From a virus (lineage: Duplodnaviria > Caudoviricetes), in IMG/VR virus record IMGVR_UViG_3300025915_000004, positions 1-64,000 of that record: DNA of 64,000 bases; one strand, given 5' to 3'. Each line of letters begins with the position of its first letter. The first letter of the stretch is position 1. Shown piece after piece: positions 11,213 through 32,591 of this stretch. The translations under genes were made by a program, and so were the position numbers. The notes beneath the pieces were generated by a model. The model had not been told where the DNA came from. It ran no database searches and was given only the letters and a program-made list of their open reading frames with translations.

Positions 11213-12378
11213 GTGCGCTGCCCTGGAGTCCTTCGGCCGGTCGCCAGCTCCCGCGCGGTGGGCCGGTGTGCCGCGCGCAGCTGCGTGCGCCCGAACCATG
11301 CTCCGGCGTGTTCGTCCGGCACGACGCCGAGCCCTCTGCACGCGCGGCAGCGGTCGTACGGGTAGGCGCGGGACGCGGCGGCGCGTAGCTTGCGGGCCGC
11401 CGGGACGCGGTTCTCGCTCGCCTCGGCCTGGCGGACCAGATCGGCGATGTACCGCTCGCGCAGCTGGTCGGTGAACGCCCGGTTGACGATGCCTTCGTCG
11501 CAGCTCCCGCATGCGACCGTCGGACCGGCGTAGCGGGCACGGCCGGACTGGCGCACGGCGCGTTCCTGCTTGCGGTCGAGGTTTCCGCGCGGACGGCGGT
11601 ACTTCGCGTCCAGCCAGCCGGCGATGCCGGGCAGTCCTGCATCGGTCATCGCCCGGCGGCTGAGTACCTTGCGCCCGCCGCGGGCGTTACGGCCGTGCAC
11701 AGGGCAGGAGACGGACCCGGCGACCAGCGTGACGCCATCGCGCTGCTCCACGGTGGCGATGCGTCCGGTGCCCTGGCACTTGCAGGTGGCGGCCAGGTAG
11801 ATGCCGCGCAGGCTCTTGCCGGGCTCAGGCGGCGGCGGAGGCGGCGGGGGAGCATTCTTCGCTGGAGCCTTCTTGCGCGGCGCGGTTTTCTTCGCTGGTG
11901 CAGGCGCCTTGGCCGATCGCTTGCGCGGTGCCCGCGCAGGTGCATCGGCCGGCTTCCCTGCGGCGATCCGGTCGGCGCGGGCATTCGCCTCTCGGTACGC
12001 CTTCATCGCCTGCGCCAGGGTGATCGGCTCGCCGGTGCGGGGGTTGGTCGCGATCACCGGACTCGGCGCGCGCTTGCGCGGCGGACGGGGTGCGGCCTTT
12101 TTCGCTGCGGCGGCCTTTTTGCGCGCCGCGGCGGCTTCGCGCTGTTCCCTGCGCCGGGCAGCCTGCTTCTCCCGTTGTTCGCGCCGCTTGCTCGCCTGGT
12201 ACTGCTTGCGCCGATTGCCCTTGTTTGTGATCGTTTTCGTGCGCAGCGGCGAGCGCGCGATGTCCGTAAACGTCTGGTGCTTGCCGCCGCTGATGAACCT
12301 GGCTGCGACCCGGTTCGGTTTCATCGCCCGTGCGGCCTGGCGCCACGGACTGCGTCGGCGCCTACGTCGGGCCATCAT
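11209..12378 (-). CDS. Very basic protein with histone-H1-like region and DnaJ-like Zn-finger motifs, coupled to traB
   Basis: Lys/Arg/Ala/Pro-rich N-half (PAKKTAPRKKAPAK); CKCQGTG, CPVH, CGSC, CRACRGLG; ATGA overlap with traB. Confidence 0.7.
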   Translation of the reverse strand: MMARRRRRRSPWRQAARAMKPNRVAARFISGGKHQTFTDIARSPLRTKTITNKGNRRKQYQASKRREQREKQAARRREQREAAAARKKAAAAKKAAPRPPRKRAPSPVIATNPRTGEPITLAQAMKAYREANARADRIAAGKPADAPARAPRKRSAKAPAPAKKTAPRKKAPAKNAPPPPPPPPEPGKSLRGIYLAATCKCQGTGRIATVEQRDGVTLVAGSVSCPVHGRNARGGRKVLSRRAMTDAGLPGIAGWLDAKYRRPRGNLDRKQERAVRQSGRARYAGPTVACGSCDEGIVNRAFTDQLRERYIADLVRQAEASENRVPAARKLRAAASRAYPYDRCRACRGLGVVPDEHAGAWFGRTQLRAAHRPTARELATGRRTPGQRT

Positions 12379-14696
12379 GCGTCCTTGCGCGCCAGTGCGC
12401 TCAGCCGGCGGCGCGCGGTCTCATCGTCGCGCCAATACCGGAAGTCGCGCCCTTCCCGCTCGCTGGTGACGTACTCTGCGGTGCGCCACTCGGCGCACAG
12501 CGTGCGCACCCACGACAGGGATCGGTCGTGGCCGGCGCGCTTGCCCGTGACACACAGCTCGGACACGGTCGCGCCGCGGTCGCCGAAGGTGGCCAGCAAC
12601 TCCCAGTACGCCAGGTGCTTGGCCTCGATCTCGGTCTCGTCCGGGTACCGGGGCACGACCCGCGGGATCCATCCGCCAGTGCCGCCGCGGGCCGGGGTGT
12701 CGTTGACGGCGGCGTCCTGCACGCCGTCTCCGTCTCCGTCCGGGTCGTCGAACGGCGGGGGCGTGGTGACGTCCGGCTCGACGCCGTTCATGATCGCCTG
12801 GAACGCGGCGTCCGACTCCTCGTCCAGTTCCGGCCGGCTGTTCTTGTACTCCTCGACCAGCTGCGCGATCCGCTCGTCGCCGAGCCAGAACCCCTTGCGC
12901 TCGACGGGGACGCGCTCGTCCAGAGTGACCATGTAGAACTTCCCCTTGGTATCCAGTTCGTTCGCCCTGAAGTTGTCGCCGTGCGCACCGTCGTACAGCA
13001 CGATGTTGGTCAGCCGCGGTCCGACGGTCGCCACGCAGATCCGGTTCTGCGCCTGGTCGGTGCCCGACTTGATACCACCGGTCGCCAGGGCGTCGGGCTT
13101 CTGCGTGGCCACCACGATCGTCACGTCGTAGGCTCGGCCGACCTGCATGATCCGCACGTAGTTGGTGGACATGCACGCGACCGCGCGCCGCAGCACCGGG
13201 TTCTTGTACTTTTTCAGGTCCGTCTGCCCCTGCTTGCGGAACAGCTCGGCGATCTCGTCGATGATCCCGACCAGCGCCGGGCCGTCCGCGGTGTCCCAGC
13301 CGCGCTCGGACTGGCCGGACTCCTGCCGCTTGCGCTTGAGGATCGCGCCGCGCGTGTTGATCACCGCGACCATGGCTTCGAGCAGCAGCGCGGCCTTCTC
13401 GAACGAGTCGGCCGAGGCGTAGGCGGCTTCCTCGTAGATCCCCAGCTCCAGCGAGCCGGGCTTGTTGTCGAGCAGGACCAGCAGCGCGTCGTCCATCGCC
13501 ATCACCTGAGTGGCGATCACGTTCACGACACCGCTTTTGCCGTTGTTCGTCGTGCCGCCGACCACCGTGTGATTGCGGTACAGCGGCAGGTACGTCATTT
13601 CTCCGGTGGCCGACGGGCCGAGCGGAATCGGGTTCTTGATCGAGCGGACCGTGATTCCCGGAAAAGGAATCTCCTCGGCCAGTTCGTCGATCTCCCCATA
13701 CCGCACGGTGAGGCGCACTTCGTTTCCGTTGCGGGTGCGCTGGGCGATGATCTGATTCGCGCCCAGAGCCGAACGCAATTCGTCGCGCCGCGCAATGATC
13801 GCGTCCGGGCCGACCCCCTTGGCCGGCGCCAGGCGCACGGTGATCCGGAACGAGGACTCGTTGATCCGCTCGAAGCCGTAGACGTCGGTGAGCTTGATCC
13901 CCAGGCCCTTGATCGCCGCGCCGTCGCCCTCGAACGCCTTCCAGACGACCGACTCCTCATGCGAAAGGATCTTGCCCGGCACGGCAGTTGCCGGGGCGGA
14001 AGTTCCGCCCGGCATTCCGAGGATTGCCGGGTTGGAGGCGGCAGTCTGGCCGACGATGAAGCCGCGCTGATCCTGAAGTCGGGAGTGCCGGTTCTCGAAC
14101 CAGGCGTAGAAACTTCCGGCAGTCAGCGGCATCGAAGTTCCGGCACTAAGCCACGACCGGCCGGTGATGCAGGCGGCTCCAAATGCCACCCCCCAGGCTC
14201 CGGCGAGGCCGACCACGTGTGCGCCGCGGGAGATCACACCGTCGTCTCCGTTGATCGCGTGGATCACGTGCACCGCGCCGTACGCCAGCAGTCCGACGAT
14301 CCCGAAGCCGAGGAAGACTGCGCCGAACCACGGGTGGTTGGGCTCGGTGGCCGCCGCGCCCCAGCCGCAGACGTCGCCAGCCAACACGCCGAGCGCGGGC
14401 ACCAGGTGGCGGTCCTGCATCCACTGGAACAGGGACCAGCCGGTGCGATCTGCCAAGCCGGGGGTCAGCTGATCCGCCACGTAGTCGGGGATGCCGGCCT
14501 GCTGGCCCCAAGGCTGCGTGGCGGATGGCTGAGACACAGTCGGGCGCTGGACCTGCGCGTTCGACATTGTTGCGAGTTGTTGCGCCACGCCACGCAGCAC
14601 AACTTCGCCGTCGCGGCGATCCGAAATCTCGATCGCGTCGATGATTTCGTCGAGTTCTTCTTCCTTGGCGTGGCGGATGGCGTGGCGTCGCATCAT
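12375..14696 (-). CDS. traB: TraB-type FtsK/SpoIIIE DNA translocase (actinomycete conjugal transfer protein)
   Basis: N-terminal TM segments, Walker A GGTTNNGKS, Walker B IIDE, VATQKP and QAQNRIC motifs, C-terminal winged helix; sits in a korA/spdA-like operon. Confidence 0.85.
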   Translation of the reverse strand: MMRRHAIRHAKEEELDEIIDAIEISDRRDGEVVLRGVAQQLATMSNAQVQRPTVSQPSATQPWGQQAGIPDYVADQLTPGLADRTGWSLFQWMQDRHLVPALGVLAGDVCGWGAAATEPNHPWFGAVFLGFGIVGLLAYGAVHVIHAINGDDGVISRGAHVVGLAGAWGVAFGAACITGRSWLSAGTSMPLTAGSFYAWFENRHSRLQDQRGFIVGQTAASNPAILGMPGGTSAPATAVPGKILSHEESVVWKAFEGDGAAIKGLGIKLTDVYGFERINESSFRITVRLAPAKGVGPDAIIARRDELRSALGANQIIAQRTRNGNEVRLTVRYGEIDELAEEIPFPGITVRSIKNPIPLGPSATGEMTYLPLYRNHTVVGGTTNNGKSGVVNVIATQVMAMDDALLVLLDNKPGSLELGIYEEAAYASADSFEKAALLLEAMVAVINTRGAILKRKRQESGQSERGWDTADGPALVGIIDEIAELFRKQGQTDLKKYKNPVLRRAVACMSTNYVRIMQVGRAYDVTIVVATQKPDALATGGIKSGTDQAQNRICVATVGPRLTNIVLYDGAHGDNFRANELDTKGKFYMVTLDERVPVERKGFWLGDERIAQLVEEYKNSRPELDEESDAAFQAIMNGVEPDVTTPPPFDDPDGDGDGVQDAAVNDTPARGGTGGWIPRVVPRYPDETEIEAKHLAYWELLATFGDRGATVSELCVTGKRAGHDRSLSWVRTLCAEWRTAEYVTSEREGRDFRYWRDDETARRRLSALARKDA
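13994..14010. repeat. Palindrome GGGCGGAA-G-TTCCGCCC inside traB
   Basis: Perfect 8-bp arms; nearly the same element recurs at 15099-15115. Confidence 0.75.
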
Positions 14697-15532
14697 CCCG
14701 CCTCCCAGCTGTCCGAAGCTGTCCGAAGCTGTCCGAGGCTGTTCGAGAGGCGTTCGACGTCGGCGCGCAGGTTGCGCTCCCAGCGATCCGAGGTGGGGAT
14801 CTTGAGCGTGGGGTGTGCGTGGCGCAACGCATCGGCCAGCTGCGTGGCGTTGGGTGCGCTACCCGTCTTCAGGACGTGGCGGGTCCACAGCGGTTCGGCG
14901 AGTTCGGCCCATACGGCGGCGGATTTGCGACCAGCCGAGCCAATGTCGACGACGTTGCCGGAATTACGGGTGGCAGCGGGGGGCGGAACGAGTGCGGCGC
15001 TGCCGCCCCCCGCTGCCGGGTCCGCTTCCGCCCGGCTGCCGGGTGCGGCCGGCGTCTTCAGGGCGGAAACGGACGTCTTGTGCCGGGCGGAAACTGCCGG
15101 GCGGAAGTTCCGCCTCGCCGCAGTCAGCTGCCGCCACAGCCAGGGGGCCAGAGAGCCCCAGCCGAGCAGGAGTACCGGGCCGACGCAGTCGACCGCCACC
15201 AGGCGCCAGTGGCTGTCGTGCAGCGCGACCGCGGTGTTGAGCCACACCATGATCAGGCCGCAGGCGAGTGCCGCCAGGTGCAGCGGCCAGTCGGCGCCCT
15301 CGTGCTCGTGCGTGGAGAGGTAGGACGCCGCGATCACCAGGACCATGACGGCCAGGTCGACGGCCGGGCCGGTCAGATATGCGATGCGGTGCTCGACGCC
15401 GAGGCTTTCCAGGAATGAGCCGACGTTCCCGAAGGAGAAGAAGAACACCAGCAGCGGAATCAGGGACAGGCCGATACCGACGATCCAGAACGTGATCGTC
15501 TCCACCGCGTCCGCAGACTTCCGGCCCGGCAT
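14693..15532 (-). CDS. SpdA-like (DUF2637-like) membrane protein of actinomycete mobile elements
   Basis: Four TM segments with the AVDLAVMV motif, low-complexity linker, helical C-terminal domain; lies between the GntR gene and traB. Confidence 0.65.
   Translation of the reverse strand: MPGRKSADAVETITFWIVGIGLSLIPLLVFFFSFGNVGSFLESLGVEHRIAYLTGPAVDLAVMVLVIAASYLSTHEHEGADWPLHLAALACGLIMVWLNTAVALHDSHWRLVAVDCVGPVLLLGWGSLAPWLWRQLTAARRNFRPAVSARHKTSVSALKTPAAPGSRAEADPAAGGGSAALVPPPAATRNSGNVVDIGSAGRKSAAVWAELAEPLWTRHVLKTGSAPNATQLADALRHAHPTLKIPTSDRWERNLRADVERLSNSLGQLRTASDSWEAG
14708..14747 (+). repeat. Four tandem 10-bp repeats, GCTGT(C/T)CGA(A/G)
   Basis: GCTGTCCGAA x2, GCTGTCCGAG, GCTGTTCGAG. Confidence 0.85.
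14981..15115. repeat. Cluster of GGGCGGAA 8-mers, candidate clt
   Basis: Direct copies at 14981, 15061, 15085, 15099; inverted at 15026; one-mismatch inverted at 15108. Confidence 0.7.
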
Positions 15533-16275
15533 TATTCCGCCTCCCCGATACGCAGGTCGTATTCCATGTCGAAGATTTCAGCGGACAGGATGATGACCAA
15601 TGCGTCGACAGGCCTGTCGTTGTCCGAGCGCGTGAGTCGCAGCACTCGCATCACCGGGATCCCCGCTGCGGCGATGCGCAGAATCCGCGCCTCTTCCGAG
15701 GTGGGCATGCGCGCCGAGACCCACTCGCGCGCCTTGCGCGGCGGGTAGCCGGCGCGTACCAGGGCTGCGGGCATGGCTCCGCGCAGACGCGCGGGACGCT
15801 CCAGCTCGGTGCCGCGGGCGATCGGGACCGGGATGTAGTCGATCGCGATCTGTGTCGGGGTGCCGTCTTCGTCGAACATGACGCGGCGCCGGCAGATCAC
15901 CGGCTCGCCGGGCTCGACCTCCAGCTTCTCGGCCACGTCGTCCGGCGGGACGATGCCGCCGACCTCCGGTTTGCTGGACCGGCCGTGGTTGATGGGCGCT
16001 CCGTCGGGGACCGGTGTCACGAAGTCGGCGGAGCGGCTGGAGCGGCGGCGCACTTCGCGCACATACACCCCTTTGCCGGAGACGGCCTGCACCAGTCCGG
16101 CCGCCTTCAGGGCGCGCACCGCCTTCTGCACGGTGTTGGACGACACGCCGTACTGCGCCACCAGCTCGGTGACCGAGGGGATCGCGCGGCCGGGCGGTAT
16201 CGTGCCTGATTCGATCTTTCCGCGCAGATCGTGCAGGACCCGCTGATACGCGGGAACGGTCCACTCGTCCGCCAT
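15532..16275 (-). CDS. GntR-family regulator with UTRA domain (KorA/TraR-like)
   Basis: GntR HTH (PSVTELVAQYGVSSNTVQKAVRAL...GKGVYV) plus UTRA-type C-terminus; first gene of the transfer operon. Confidence 0.9.
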   Translation of the reverse strand: MADEWTVPAYQRVLHDLRGKIESGTIPPGRAIPSVTELVAQYGVSSNTVQKAVRALKAAGLVQAVSGKGVYVREVRRRSSRSADFVTPVPDGAPINHGRSSKPEVGGIVPPDDVAEKLEVEPGEPVICRRRVMFDEDGTPTQIAIDYIPVPIARGTELERPARLRGAMPAALVRAGYPPRKAREWVSARMPTSEEARILRIAAAGIPVMRVLRLTRSDNDRPVDALVIILSAEIFDMEYDLRIGEAE

Positions 16276-20409: not shown

Positions 20410-20652
20410 TCATCGGCGCCGCTCCTTCTGCTGCGGCACCAGCGGATCCCAGCGCTGCATCCACCTGAACCCAGGCACGGCGGGCACCGTGATCAGGGTC
20501 ACCTGTGCCCATGACGTCAGATGCCAGAACTGGCGGCCGAGCCACTGCGTCAGGTGCCAGATCGCATTGAAATCCGCCGGGCTCAGGCGCACATGCGAGC
20601 CGCCTCCGCGCGAGCTGCCGCGCGCCTCGATGGCGACGAGGATCAGGTTCAC
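20410..20652 (-). CDS. Hypothetical protein
   Basis: GTG at 20652 overlaps the DUF4031 stop. Confidence 0.45.
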   Translation of the reverse strand: MNLILVAIEARGSSRGGGSHVRLSPADFNAIWHLTQWLGRQFWHLTSWAQVTLITVPAVPGFRWMQRWDPLVPQQKERRR

Positions 20653-20981
20653 CCGATCGCCGCCTTCGCCTTCTGCGCCGCCTCGAACCGCGCGTCGATG
20701 ATCGGGCCGATGTCCCGGATCCCGATCGGTTTCGCGCCGAGCCGGATCGCCAGCTCCCGCTTGCGATCGATCACGTCGTAGTGCCAGCTCTCCGCGGCGC
20801 GCGATCCCGGCGTGGCTTCCAGCTTGCCGTCCACACACGGGTCCTGGAACCACTCACGGCGCAGGCCGAGCCGCTCCGCGAACGCGTGCAGCTCCTCCGG
20901 CGTGTCCGCGATCAGGTGCGACCACCGGCCGGCCAGACCGCGCACCCGGGCCGGAATCCGCGCGTCGTCCACGTAGATCAT
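20649..20981 (-). CDS. DUF4031-family protein
   Basis: MIYVDD...WSHLIADTPEELHAFAERLGLRREWFQ...HYDV...AIRLGA. Confidence 0.85.
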   Translation of the reverse strand: MIYVDDARIPARVRGLAGRWSHLIADTPEELHAFAERLGLRREWFQDPCVDGKLEATPGSRAAESWHYDVIDRKRELAIRLGAKPIGIRDIGPIIDARFEAAQKAKAAIG

Positions 20982-26968: not shown

Positions 26969-27622
26969 CTACTCCGTCCGAACGGCGGCGGTCTCCGTCC
27001 CGTCCTCGGCCGCCAGGATCTCGGCGCGCAGCACGGTGCGCACGGTGCGCTGCGCCTCCGCGGACACGCCGGCCTGCGCCAGGGCGGTGTCCAGCGCACG
27101 GTCCAGCAGTGCGATCTGCCGCTCTTGCAGGTCGAGGCCGCGCTGGTCCAGCCCGAGCCGCAGCGCCTTCTCCGCATGGACGCCGGCCTGGTCGGTCGCC
27201 TTGAGCAGCGCGCCGATCTCCGGGCGCAGGTGCAGGTTGCCGAAACCGTCGTAGTACGTCAGCTCCGGGTGCTCGGCCAGGGCGGCGTGCAGCCGGGAGG
27301 CCATGGCCCGGCTCAGCGCCATGATCCATTGCAGCGTCTCCCCCGGATTGCCGTACAGCTCGATCAGCTCGCGGTCGGTCAGCTCCAGCACGCTCTTGCG
27401 CGCCTCCATGATCGCCTGACGCTCGGCGGTGCGCCGCTGCGCCGCGCCCTGCGTGGTCGGCGCCAGCCCGCCGTGCATGCGGCAGACCGAGGCGCCCTCC
27501 ACCGGCCCGTTCGCGCACTGCTCGCCGGCCCGGTTGTGGGCCGTGCACCGGTGCGACGGCGGCTTGCCCAGCAGGTCGGCCATCACGTCGTCCATGTTCC
27601 GGCGCTGCTCCAGCTCATCCAT
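26969..27622 (-). CDS. HGGxSTG-like Zn-binding protein, candidate terminase small subunit
   Basis: RCTAHNRAGEQC...VCRMHGGLAP followed by a helical region; TATCGT 7 nt before the ATG suggests a leaderless mRNA. Confidence 0.5.
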   Translation of the reverse strand: MDELEQRRNMDDVMADLLGKPPSHRCTAHNRAGEQCANGPVEGASVCRMHGGLAPTTQGAAQRRTAERQAIMEARKSVLELTDRELIELYGNPGETLQWIMALSRAMASRLHAALAEHPELTYYDGFGNLHLRPEIGALLKATDQAGVHAEKALRLGLDQRGLDLQERQIALLDRALDTALAQAGVSAEAQRTVRTVLRAEILAAEDGTETAAVRTE

Positions 27623-27748
27623 GTCCGACACGATACGCCGACATGATCGGCCGTCCATAGGGCGAAAAGGATCATGGAATCGGCAGCCGATCGATCGGCG
27701 TCCCGGACAGTCCTGGACAGCCGTCAAAACAACTCTCTGACCTGCACC

Positions 27749-27918
27749 GACGTACGTCTCGCATGATCCATCTGTTCGATTTCCCGAACACGATGTCGAC
27801 CTAGAAAAGCGGATACGCTACTGACGTACATGGTGTTTGATCCATCTACACTGACGCACATCTCGCATGATCCATCTGATTTTGACGCACGTCTCGCCTT
27901 CCTCATCTGCTATGACGC
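27749..27918 (+). repeat. Iteron-like degenerate direct repeats, candidate replication origin
   Basis: 26-nt units GACG(T/C)AC...CATCT at 27749, 27823, 27853, 27884 and a partial unit at 27914; last spacings 30, 31, 30 bp; AT-rich tract at about 27960-27990. Confidence 0.7.
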
Positions 27919-28062
27919 TAACGAGATTGACACTAAAAACACATCCCTGTTCCCACTCCCTACTTTATCTGTTGTTGAAAAATAATAGGGAGAGGGGACC
28001 AGATACATAGGGGCCGAGTAGAGATTGTGCGTTCTAGCGTTAGTACCGTATACACTGCTGTC

Positions 28063-28416
28063 ATGGCTACCAAGTATGAGATCGAGAATCGGAACGCCCG
28101 TCAGGACGCCGTCACCCTCGCCGTGCAGGAGAAGATCACGAAACCGTGGTGGGGCACGATGACCGAGCTGGTCGAGTTCCTCGCGGTGCAGCTGCCGTTC
28201 CCCCACGTGCTGACGCCGCGCACGCTGTCCGCCACCCTGGCGAAGTTGGAGGACGGCGGCTGGATCGACCACACCGTCCGCCACTGGCACACCGGCAAGG
28301 CCCGCATGGTCGCCCTGATCCCGCCCGGATGGCGGTGGGACAACGAGCATCGGCAGTGGGTCGTCAACGGCTCTCCAGTCCCTACTCAGGAGCCGTCCCA
28401 GACTGTCCCGCAGTAG
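28063..28416 (+). CDS. Stand-alone winged-helix protein paralogous to the C-terminus of the ATPase at 28603..30009
   Basis: Shares WxGTxTEL, TPRxLSxxL, GW and GxxRxVxxxPP with the ATPase C-terminus; TACACT 6 nt before the ATG and no SD (leaderless). Confidence 0.75.
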   Translation: MATKYEIENRNARQDAVTLAVQEKITKPWWGTMTELVEFLAVQLPFPHVLTPRTLSATLAKLEDGGWIDHTVRHWHTGKARMVALIPPGWRWDNEHRQWVVNGSPVPTQEPSQTVPQ

Positions 28417-28523
28417 TTGCGGACATCTTCCCGCCCGTGCGACATTGAGAACGGCCCGTCTTCGCCACGAGTCCAGCGGCGTGTCAGCGCCATGGCCCCT
28501 GCGGACTGGACGCACCGGTGAAC

Positions 28524-28574
28524 GCGAAGTCCCCGCGACCGCGGTCCTGACAGACCCGATGGCGGGGACTTCGC
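28524..28574. terminator. Inverted repeat between convergent genes
   Basis: GCGAAGTCCCCGC ... GCGGGGACTTCGC, 13-bp arms. Confidence 0.65.
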
Positions 28575-28602
28575 TGTTGCCGCGGTCAGCCGCGCACCGC
28601 GG

Positions 28603-30009
28603 TCACGGCGGTGTCACCCGCACCACCCGCGAGCCGTCCCCCGCGCGCCCGCGCTCGATGCGCCACCCGATCGCGTTCAGGGCCTGCGTCGCGCGCTCCA
28701 GCCGGTCGGACAGCAGCCGGGGCGTCCAGTGCCGCCCCGGTTCGTCCTGAAGACCACCGTGCATCATCAAGTGCCCCAGCAGCTCGGTGGTGGTGCCCTG
28801 CCAGGTGCCGCGCACAGCCTGGCGCAGGGCGACGGCGACCGTGTCACCCTCGGCGATGTCCTCCAGCGCCGAGAACCGCCCCGCGCGCCACGCCCCCAGG
28901 GCGTTGGTGTGCCAGCGGCGGTCCACGGCCGCCACGATCTGCGAGAAGCGCGTGAGGCGGTCGGCGGCGTTGCTGCGCGGCAGCGAGAGCATGTCCCCGA
29001 AGATCTCCGCCGTGCGGTCCAGCAGCCACGCCAGGGCCGAGGGGTGCGCCAGTGCCCAGGTGGCCGCGACTTCGTCGTCGTTGCGCCAGGAGGTCAGCCG
29101 CGAGAGGCGGTGCATGGCGATCCGGTCCGCCAGGTCGCCCTCCAGCCCGCCGAGGGTGATGCCGTTGATCACGATCACGCTCTGGAACGCCGAGACGTAC
29201 AGGTCGCCGTCGGTATATAGCGCGCGGTCCACCCAGCCGTCCCCGGAGGCGGCCTTGCACAGGGCGTCCGACCACCAGCGCGCGATCCCGGAGACGTTGT
29301 CCATCGGCAGCACGTACCGCCCGCTGGCGTAGGCCGCCCAGGTCTTCCCGTCCCGCGGGACCGGGAGCATGGCGGGGGACGCGTCGATCCAGTTCGACGT
29401 GATCTTCGTGGCACCGGTCTTCGCCGAGCCGGGCGGTCCGCTGATCACCTCGATCGGGTGCGTGATGCCGGGGAAAAGGGACGCGATGCGGCAGGCGACG
29501 TACAGGGCCCAGTCATCCACAGACGCGATGTTGATCAGGTCGCGGACCAAGTCCATGCCGCCGTCGTCCGTCGGAAGGGGCAGCTCCGCCGTCAGGGACG
29601 TCCTGGTGAACAGGACGGGCGGGCGGTCCACCACGCACCAGCGGCCGGGCTCCAGCATGACCGCCTTGCCGTCCGTGCGCCCCAGGTCGAGGAACACCGC
29701 GCCCTCGTGCCCGGCGATGCGCAGGTTCGGCGTCACCCGGCGCCGGCTCATCGCCGCGCCCTCGGCCAGGTTCAGCACCGTGGTCAGCGCCTCGGAGTTC
29801 GCGGCCCGGCCGGTCTGCGCGTACATGTCCGCGGCGAGGCGCTGGCGCATGCCGTTCGTGCCGCGCATCGGGATCATGACGGACGGGGTGTCGTTGCGCA
29901 CCGCGAACAGCCGCCCGTCCGTGGCGCACGAGACGTAGTAGTCCCTTTGCAGGATCTGCATCAGCACGTCCACGGCCGCGATCTGGCCGTTCCCCCCTGC
30001 TCCGCTCAT
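28603..30009 (-). CDS. P-loop ATPase / helicase-like replication protein with C-terminal winged helix
   Basis: Walker A GPPGSAKT, MDNVS, acidic RALYTDGD segment, VINGI; resembles the helicase half of primase-helicases without the primase domain. Confidence 0.75.
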   Translation of the reverse strand: MSGAGGNGQIAAVDVLMQILQRDYYVSCATDGRLFAVRNDTPSVMIPMRGTNGMRQRLAADMYAQTGRAANSEALTTVLNLAEGAAMSRRRVTPNLRIAGHEGAVFLDLGRTDGKAVMLEPGRWCVVDRPPVLFTRTSLTAELPLPTDDGGMDLVRDLINIASVDDWALYVACRIASLFPGITHPIEVISGPPGSAKTGATKITSNWIDASPAMLPVPRDGKTWAAYASGRYVLPMDNVSGIARWWSDALCKAASGDGWVDRALYTDGDLYVSAFQSVIVINGITLGGLEGDLADRIAMHRLSRLTSWRNDDEVAATWALAHPSALAWLLDRTAEIFGDMLSLPRSNAADRLTRFSQIVAAVDRRWHTNALGAWRAGRFSALEDIAEGDTVAVALRQAVRGTWQGTTTELLGHLMMHGGLQDEPGRHWTPRLLSDRLERATQALNAIGWRIERGRAGDGSRVVRVTPP

Positions 30010-31652: not shown

Positions 31653-31665
31653 ACTGATGACAACT
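31653..31665 (-). promoter_or_regulatory. 13-bp early-gene motif, copy 2
   Basis: Exact copy overlapping TAAGTT, upstream of GTTCAGGGAGGA. Confidence 0.8.
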
Positions 31666-32591
31666 TAGTACGCGCCGCCTTGGCCGCGCAACCACGCTTC
31701 GCGCAGCCGCCGCTCGCGCTGCTTCTCCCCGTCGATGAATTTGCGGGCGCTCTCGCACAGGGTCAGCACCTCGCGCCACGGCATCCCGGAGGTGTCCCCC
31801 GCCTGCCAGATCGCGCGCAGCTCGCCCAGCACCTGCTCCGCAGGAAGGCGGCGGTGCAGCGAGCAGGCCGCGCGGTACAGCTCGCGGTTGCGCGCGCCGA
31901 CCGGTGCGCCGCGGGTCTTAAGCTCCTCCAGGTCGACGTCCTCGCCGCTGTACGCGCCGCCCGAGGACGCCGGCCCGGCCGAGGCGATCCACGCCAGCAG
32001 CCAGGGCGGCGCGTCCGGCGCCGAGCAGAAGCAGCCGTCCGTCCACCGGTAGGGCACCGGGACCTGCTCCCCGGAGCGGTCGGTCATCACCGCCATCGAC
32101 GGGGCGGCGACCACGAGGTTGCCGTCGCCGAGGATGTCCACGCCCGGCAGGATCCGGTTGCGCCCCGGCACCCGCATCCCGGCGGGCGTGCGCAGCCACA
32201 GGTGCACGCCGCCGGACGGGGTCGTGGACACGGCGGGCCCGCGCAGGCCGAGCCCGTGCTGCTGCATGAACCGCCACAGCTCGCCGGGCCCGTCGTCCCC
32301 GTGCTTCACGTCCAGGTCGAGCACGACCAGCCGGGACGGCGAGCCGCAGGCGACGCCGATGTTCGCGGCGCGGTCCTGCCCCCAGCTCCAGCGCACCGCG
32401 CGGTTGTCGATCGAGGCCCAGTGCACGCCGCCGGAGTCTCCCAGCATCCGGTGCGGGCGCTTGCGACCGCGGACCAGCGCCAGCACCGCATAGCCCTGGC
32501 CCTGGTAGCGCAGGGCGGCGGCGCCGAGCCCGAGCCGGCGCACCGCGGGATCGTCGGCGGCGAAATCCTGATGAGAACAGCGCATGTGCAC
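31665..32591 (-). CDS. Bifunctional DNA primase/polymerase (prim-pol) with a PriCT-like C-terminus
   Basis: ANIGVACG, VLDLDVKHG, TTPSGGVHLW, GVDIL, VVAAPS; GARNRELYRAAC. Confidence 0.9.
   Translation of the reverse strand: MHMRCSHQDFAADDPAVRRLGLGAAALRYQGQGYAVLALVRGRKRPHRMLGDSGGVHWASIDNRAVRWSWGQDRAANIGVACGSPSRLVVLDLDVKHGDDGPGELWRFMQQHGLGLRGPAVSTTPSGGVHLWLRTPAGMRVPGRNRILPGVDILGDGNLVVAAPSMAVMTDRSGEQVPVPYRWTDGCFCSAPDAPPWLLAWIASAGPASSGGAYSGEDVDLEELKTRGAPVGARNRELYRAACSLHRRLPAEQVLGELRAIWQAGDTSGMPWREVLTLCESARKFIDGEKQRERRLREAWLRGQGGAY

Follow-up and report, generated by a model that had tools for sequence, protein, structure and literature searches.

Self-loading helicase-initiators of superfamily 3 (SF3), such as the alpha protein of phage P4, the Rep proteins of the Staphylococcus aureus pathogenicity islands (SaPIs), and the D5-like enzymes, are generally portrayed as working unaided at their origins. 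To our knowledge, the limits on the firing of such an initiator are known in detail for P4 alone, for which Yeo et al. reportedly proposed in 2002 that Cnr, as a winged helix, pairs with the origin-binding domain of alpha. In the present study, we analyzed a stretch of 64,000 nucleotides (hereafter, the window; positions 1 to 64,000 of the virus record IMGVR_UViG_3300025915_000004), in which a gene for a 117-aa protein (the small gene) is convergent with a gene for a 468-aa ATPase, a predicted SF3-type helicase. Judged from alignments at several levels, the 117-aa protein and the C-terminal ~93 residues of the helicase are true paralogues. The new feature is that an SF3 helicase has a demonstrable paralogue of its origin-binding domain, which separated long ago and has its own promoter inside a candidate origin. 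We tentatively propose, with somewhat less than even confidence, that the small protein, as an accessory and dispensable factor, modulates (most likely inhibits) initiation at the iteron origin beside it.

The SF3 helicase-initiator P4 alpha binds its origin through a C-terminal winged helix (PMC2777425), and the P4 Cnr protein (ORF106, ~106 aa) controls the plasmid copy number (PMC8628076). The C-terminal winged helix of SaPI Rep recognises iterons located directly downstream of rep, which an AT-rich region divides into two oppositely oriented halves; these Reps are presented as loading themselves without any identified helper (PMC9371898). The present locus resembles both systems. As for SaPI Rep and PriRep, an SF3 helicase with a C-terminal winged helix is encoded downstream of a primase gene in the same operon, and, as in the SaPI ori, the putative iterons come right after the helicase gene and flank an AT-rich region, with opposite orientations on its two sides. 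Unlike the SaPIs, for which no free-standing copy of the winged helix is described in PMC9371898, the present locus has such a copy; furthermore, sequence similarity to the SaPI system is undetectable (no Pfam match, no PDB sequence match), and the repeats are ~30 nt apart with an 8-10-nt core, in contrast to the penta- and hexanucleotides of SaPI. P4 also has its iteron region directly after the helicase gene: in the P4 record, the alpha gene is immediately followed by crr, whose type-1 repeats occur in both orientations. However, P4 cnr is upstream of alpha in the same direction and operon, whereas the small gene is downstream of the helicase gene, convergent with it, and has its own promoter inside the candidate origin. 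The primases also differ, being of the DnaG type in P4 and a separate Prim-Pol here. P4 Cnr (DUF5375) had no detectable similarity to alpha (BLASTP E 14) or to the family of the small protein (hhalign probability 0.4%), which is itself without a Pfam match; thus, paralogy with the helicase is demonstrable for the small protein, unlike for Cnr and alpha. The combined winged-helix family of small proteins and helicases gave no match to the P4 alpha C-terminus in hhalign with a single-sequence template, and the P4 origin-binding domain (1KA8) was not among the 50 matches listed in either of our structural searches. P4 Cnr is the closest functional precedent.

The original prediction had aligned the 117-aa protein by eye with the C-terminus of the ATPase, and this alignment held. 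BLASTP matched the protein with residues 376-468 of the ATPase (27% identity over 96 columns, E 2e-4), and in a tblastn search of 22 related contigs it matched the helicase C-terminus in about 20 (E 1e-7 to 1e-3). In profile comparisons by hhalign, seven small proteins were aligned with 13 helicase C-termini (probability 98%, E 1.6e-13) and with 28 full-length helicases (probability 98%, E 1.3e-14). When 1.84 billion representatives were searched with a hidden Markov model (HMM) of the small family, just 17 proteins matched; these include full-length helicases matched at their last ~80 residues with library-wide E values of 4e-4 to 9e-4. Searches of Pfam, PHROG, and NCBIfam with the small protein gave no match. 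Beyond the terminal PP, the small proteins have a conserved tail, PPGW.WD(D/E)...W.V.G.P, whereas the helicase clade of the window is without it. Distant helicases (from the related contigs L014, L016, L017, and L019) end in PPGW(T/M/R).(W/H)D..(A/E).W, the tail motif of the small proteins. Since distant helicases share the tail, the small-protein duplicate appears to preserve the ancestral C-terminus, and on this comparison it is the helicase clade of the window that has lost it.

The suggestion that the small protein is a stand-alone winged-helix duplicate agrees with the AlphaFold models, in which both the small protein and the helicase domain are winged helices with one order of elements (helix, strand, helix, helix, and two-strand wing). 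The model of the small protein (m47eda71537d7; predicted local distance difference test, pLDDT, 79) has helices (H) and strands (E) at H4-24, E29-32, H33-40, H52-64, E71-76, and E81-86, following the predicted H1-S1-H2-H3-S2-wing-S3 topology, and the tail forms an additional beta-hairpin (E90-93/E98-101). In the helicase model, the corresponding elements are H390-398, E403-405, H407-417, H430-446, E450-455, and E461-466, giving a winged-helix topology at residues 390-466. The leading structural matches of the small model were all winged helices, namely, the extended winged helix (eWH) of TFIIIC, Cdt1, the C-terminal winged helices of MCM4 and Cdc6/Orc1, and the PadR/MarR/Fur proteins (Z 5-6.7, root-mean-square deviation 2.5-3.9 A, 70-92 residues aligned). 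These middling Z values support the winged-helix fold class for the model, not any specific family.

The assignment of the 468-aa protein to the SF3-type helicases is based on its model and on conserved residues. In 28 helicase homologues, G194, K197, T198, D237, N238, N282 (near-invariant), and R296 are invariant or nearly so, and D237, N282, and R296 were assigned to motif B (Walker B), motif C (the sensor Asn), and the arginine finger, respectively, by position alone. The AlphaFold model (pLDDT 78, with low confidence at residues 229-285) had 57 matches in the PDB at E<=1e-3 by Foldseek; among the matches listed were African swine fever virus (ASFV) PrimPol, poxvirus D5/E5, NrS-1, SaPI5 PriRep, and SCCmec Cch, and the listed SF3 matches had E values of 1e-5 to 4e-4 and template modelling (TM) scores of 0.3-0.46. 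As modelled, the ATPase fold is like that of the SF3 self-loading helicases. In the ESM Atlas, used for leads only, the best entry by query TM-score was a cluster of phage DUF5906 helicases (TM 0.52). At the sequence level, the helicase had no Pfam or PHROG match, no meaningful NCBIfam match, and no PDB sequence match in a profile search, and it does not belong by sequence to the curated families D5_N, DUF5906, Pox_D5, VirE, and the like; its remote homologues gave only faint hints of DUF5906, Toprim, and RepB_primase_C. The homologues (n=68) are nearly all from soil metagenomes, and one is from a metagenome-assembled genome (MAG) of Streptosporangiaceae. This MAG contig, the only one given by the scan of genome contigs, ends 114 bp past the helicase gene. 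The phages discussed here are known from metagenomes only.

The small gene lies beside an origin-like iteron/AT-rich region, and the repeats noted originally next to the gene are real, consisting of four ~30-nt units and a partial fifth (coordinates in Table 1). The array has the core TGACGYACRT with a start-to-start spacing of 74/30/31/31, and the repeat is unique within the window. The AT-rich core is conserved in L001 and L010. On its helicase side, the inverted copies of the repeat core overlap the upstream part of the promoter of the small gene, and one to three clear inverted sites are found at the equivalent position in L010, L001, L007, L016, and L023. An equivalent array occupies the same place in all of the relatives examined, with the small gene present or absent, and the order from the helicase gene outward is one to three inverted sites, an AT-rich stretch of 40-60 bp, and four to six direct sites about 30 bp apart. 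In L023, two mirrored arrays surround a stretch of 25% GC. A comparison of the repeat cores (GTGCGTCAG, GTGCGTCCGC, GCGCCACCG, and TGCGTCACCC) with the recognition helices showed no clear pattern of co-variation, the lineages being too few. L002 (5404-5800) has a different core (..GCGCCACCG instead of GTGCGTC..), and the recognition helix of its helicase starts with TPQ, not TPR; this is a single anecdote of possible co-variation.

The small gene was also predicted to have its own, apparently leaderless promoter, and the comparison of orthologues bears this out. In all seven sequences compared (the window, L001, L004, L006, L009, L016, and L023), a TANNNT hexamer is located 6 nt before the ATG (7 nt in L016 and L023). 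This gap is too short for a Shine-Dalgarno sequence, and a spacing of 6-7 nt is that expected for leaderless actinobacterial mRNAs. With TANNNT so near the ATG, the mRNA of the small gene is probably leaderless and produced from its own promoter. A scan for E. coli-type consensus promoters and terminators found nothing; the -10 hexamer came instead from the comparison of orthologues. A GTG start at 28027 was ruled out, since the orthologues align from the ATG at 28063. The hairpin between the small gene and the helicase gene is likely to be a bidirectional terminator without a U tract. The two genes are 186 bp apart in the window, with the hairpin between them, and in L023 (5321-5324) they overlap by 4 bp at their convergent 3' ends. 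Convergent transcription itself could couple the expression of the two genes. On the other side of the array, the leftward operon has a conserved TATCGT -10 sequence (27630-27635), 7 nt before the ATG at 27622, with TATCGT/TATGGT equivalents in L001 and L010, and its mRNA also seems to be leaderless; thus, the candidate origin seems to be flanked by two divergent leaderless-type promoters.

This arrangement would also suit a transcription regulator that re-uses the winged helix as a repressor-like switch or timing factor and controls its own promoter and/or the leftward early operon, not helicase loading; loss of the gene in relatives would then mark regulatory or virulent variants. The small gene is the sole plus-strand gene inside a ~32-kb minus-strand block, and its leaderless promoter lies inside a repeat-rich intergenic region between divergent promoters. 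Furthermore, the best structural neighbours of the small protein include PadR/MarR/BlaI-type regulators, its recognition helix is unlike that of the helicase, and a patchy distribution is typical of phage repressors. However, the direct repeats adjoin the promoter of the small gene yet are 120-290 nt upstream of the promoter of the leftward operon, and a simple operator role there is therefore unlikely. The repeats are unchanged where the gene is absent, which argues that they serve another protein, and the detectable relatives of the small protein are solely domains of the helicase origin-binding type. No tyrosine recombinase, serine recombinase (resolvase), or ParB_N was found in G000-G003 (four ~70-kb genomes rated 94-100% complete), and thus there is no sign of a maintained prophage. 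On balance, we consider a transcription regulator unlikely. The earlier idea that the small protein switches between plasmid and lytic replication likewise gains little support from these genomes; the gene for a TraB-like translocase (described below) does not track the small gene, being present in one genome without it and absent from one with it.

When other elements were searched for the gene pair, as the original prediction had proposed, orthologues of the small gene were found in no fewer than seven further contigs (L001, L004/L011, L006, L009, L016, L023/L024, and a 4165-bp contig), each time convergent at the same place, with 33-70% identity, and this synteny holds down to a helicase identity of 55-58%. 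A joint tree separated the small proteins from the helicase domains as two clades (split support 99/99; the L016 branch is long). The separate clade of small proteins fits one duplication before these phages diverged, and thus points to a single old duplication as the source of the small gene. The partial representation of the parent gene might instead suggest a functionless, decaying relic of a partial duplication of the 3' end of the helicase gene. This can hardly be credited, since the orthologues are intact, each having its own start and the conserved -10, across phages whose helicases are only 55-58% identical, the small proteins are a separate clade with a conserved family-specific N-terminal motif and tail, the gene has a coding-type composition (GC3 0.85 vs GC2 0.47), and its ratio of nonsynonymous to synonymous substitution rates (dN/dS) is below 1. 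We rejected the relic, or pseudogene, on this conservation evidence.

The small gene is, however, optional. It is absent from L010 (helicase 87% identical), L002/L005 (80%), and L007/L008/L012/L013 (75%), and, as compared in these sequences, its losses have been repeated and have left the repeats unchanged. In L010, a gap of about 520 aligned columns has removed the small gene and the convergent spacer, and the AT-rich core, the inverted sites, and the direct repeats are kept. Since close relatives that keep the repeats are without the gene, its product is unlikely to be an essential loader, and an accessory modulator fits better. This bears on the possibility of a positive origin factor, in which the free winged helix marks or bends the origin, or recruits the helicase by pairing of winged helices, and thereby aids loading. 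Homology and position fit such a factor as they fit the modulator that we favour, and the conserved tail, common to distant helicases, could be a protein-contact element. However, the gene is dispensable in relatives whose helicases are 75-87% identical and whose origin has the same layout, and no helper is identified for the self-loading SaPI Reps (PMC9371898). A positive factor therefore appears improbable.

An accessory and probably inhibitory modulator could work as follows. If it behaves as SaPI Rep and P4 alpha do, the helicase would read the repeats through its winged helix and then load itself. The free domain, which is without the ATPase and oligomerisation (ring-forming) parts, would occupy the sites of the helicase or pair with its winged helix, and helicase loading would be damped or timed by either event. 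Because the promoter of the small gene abuts the helicase-proximal sites, occupancy could feed back on the synthesis of the small protein, with the occupied proximal sites acting on the gene's own promoter. The dispensability of the gene suggests a modulator rather than a loader. In a stronger form of the proposal, which we regard as rather doubtful, the free domain (by pairing or by iteron occupancy) together with the origin-embedded, occupancy-sensitive leaderless promoter would make a self-contained negative-feedback governor of helicase self-loading.

Several observations weigh against an accessory modulator. The recognition helix is TPR.LSERLER..QAL in the helicase and TPR.LSA.L..LE in the small protein, with fewer basic residues in the latter, and its mean identity is 0.37 among the small proteins vs 0.56 among the helicases; the two families may therefore not read one shared sequence. 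Two of the small proteins have a near-neutral pI, and the helicase-proximal sites of the window are degenerate. The small gene has a dN/dS of 0.4-0.6 vs about 0.3 for the helicase gene, both values being probably inflated by the extreme GC3. In addition, the intergenic region is a candidate origin, a probable one, on its architecture only. Some of these observations would suit a weapon against other phages, with which the free domain blocks the iterons or the helicase of related co-infecting phages (exclusion at the level of replication), with no part in the regulation of the phage itself. The gene is optional and patchily distributed, it evolves faster than the helicase gene, its recognition helix is variable, and the core GTGCGTC is common to many relatives. 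However, the phage's own origin, with an identical core, would be equally affected, and a promoter inside that origin suggests self-regulation. We consider an inter-phage weapon very doubtful, and an accessory modulator of the phage's own initiation is preferred.

There are also parallels outside the SF3 replicons. The repressor and the transposase of phage Mu act on overlapping sites (operator/enhancer). Essentially consisting of a DNA-binding/dimerisation domain, the papillomavirus proteins E2-TR and E8-E2 antagonise the full-length factor at shared near-origin sites; these repressor forms arise from one gene by internal promoters or splicing, and E2 is a helicase loader, not a helicase. Unlike the E2 forms, the small protein is an ancient, separate paralogue. 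Work on the homology between the N-terminal DNA-binding domains of the Mu repressor and the MuA transposase is referenced in PMC3820752, and the winged helix-turn-helix of the MuA I-alpha subdomain is described in PMC3362531. Thus, in Mu as here, homologous DNA-binding domains of the winged-helix type occur both in a small regulator and in a large enzyme that processes DNA, the two being encoded by one element. However, the process is transposition in Mu and helicase loading here, and the Mu repressor, which lysogeny requires, contains further parts for dimerisation and regulation, whereas the small protein is little more than the domain and is optional. The original prediction knew of no described equivalent. 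This was overstated, as related logic exists in P4 Cnr, the Mu repressor and transposase, and papillomavirus E2; the part that stands is the demonstrable paralogy, in which the present pair is unlike Cnr and alpha.

The window is part of a 74.6-kb virus record that has a 99-bp terminal direct repeat and is rated complete. Its source is a soil actinobacterial tailed phage, and the tailed-phage genes in the window include those for a Mu-type portal, a large terminase, and a lysin with a PG-binding domain. A megablast search of the region against the phage collection gave a 47-nt match only. The replication genes are in the minus-strand order Prim-Pol, Top6A-like protein, 133-aa ORF, and 468-aa P-loop ATPase, and genes for PolA, an SNF2 helicase, a PD-(D/E)XK nuclease, and an AAA_24 protein follow on the plus strand from 32660. 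The 339-aa Top6A-like protein had no match in a Pfam search; at the equivalent position in L002 and L004 its gene is absent, with a short ORF or nothing instead. A DUF4031 protein (PF13223, E 3e-23) is encoded among the small early genes (20649-20981, minus strand). Within this tailed-phage genome, an FtsK/SpoIIIE-type (TraB-like) translocase and a GntR-UTRA regulator are encoded at 12375-16275 on the minus strand. Among the relatives, the complete G001 (72.9 kb) encodes a TraB of 40% identity, and G002 (71.9 kb) and G003 (68.8 kb) have none; the TraB-like module is thus also optional.

Table 1. Features of the replication region of the window (positions are those of the window; a dot indicates no strand).
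Feature	Position	Strand	Basis or remark
First gene of the leftward operon, HGGxSTG-domain protein	26969..27622	-	NCBIfam NF041373, E 6e-8; probable start ATG 27622
Direct-repeat array, candidate iterons	27742..27922	.	Four ~30-nt units (27742-27909) and a partial fifth
AT-richest intergenic 40 nt, candidate DNA-unwinding element	27948..27987	.	GC 0.33 vs about 0.68 for the genome
Degenerate inverted repeat-core copies TTGTGCGTTC, TAGCGTTAG	28025..28043	.	Helicase side of the AT-rich core
TACACT, putative -10 hexamer of the TANNNT type	28051..28056	+	-12..-7 relative to the A of the ATG; comparison of orthologues
Small gene, 117-aa predicted winged-helix protein with C-terminal GW.WD...W beta-hairpin tail	28063..28416	+	ORF, homology, model
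Hairpin with 13-bp perfect stem	28524..28574	.	Between the convergent small gene and helicase gene
468-aa SF3-type helicase/initiator (predicted)	28603..30009	-	Walker A GPPGSAKT at residues 191-198; model; conserved D237, N282, R296
Helicase C-terminal winged-helix domain (modelled), residues ~376-468	28606..28884	-	Parent-type copy of the small protein
Top6A-like protein, 339 aa	30644..31663	-	phrog_6247 'DNA topoisomerase', E 1e-88; between the primase and helicase genes
Prim-Pol primase	31665..32591	-	PF09250, E 5e-28; heads the operon of the helicase; order kept in relatives

Our results define a previously unclassified family of SF3 helicases, without a Pfam or PHROG match, and a candidate origin of ~70-kb soil actinophages. 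A gene that is conserved beside the origin yet optional makes the relatives without it natural knock-outs. A copy of the origin-binding domain that was duplicated long ago and is transcribed on its own would offer a simple means of regulation, and, if the negative-feedback governor described above is true, it would represent a new type of replication control for SF3-helicase replicons, made by duplicating the DNA-reading domain of the initiator.

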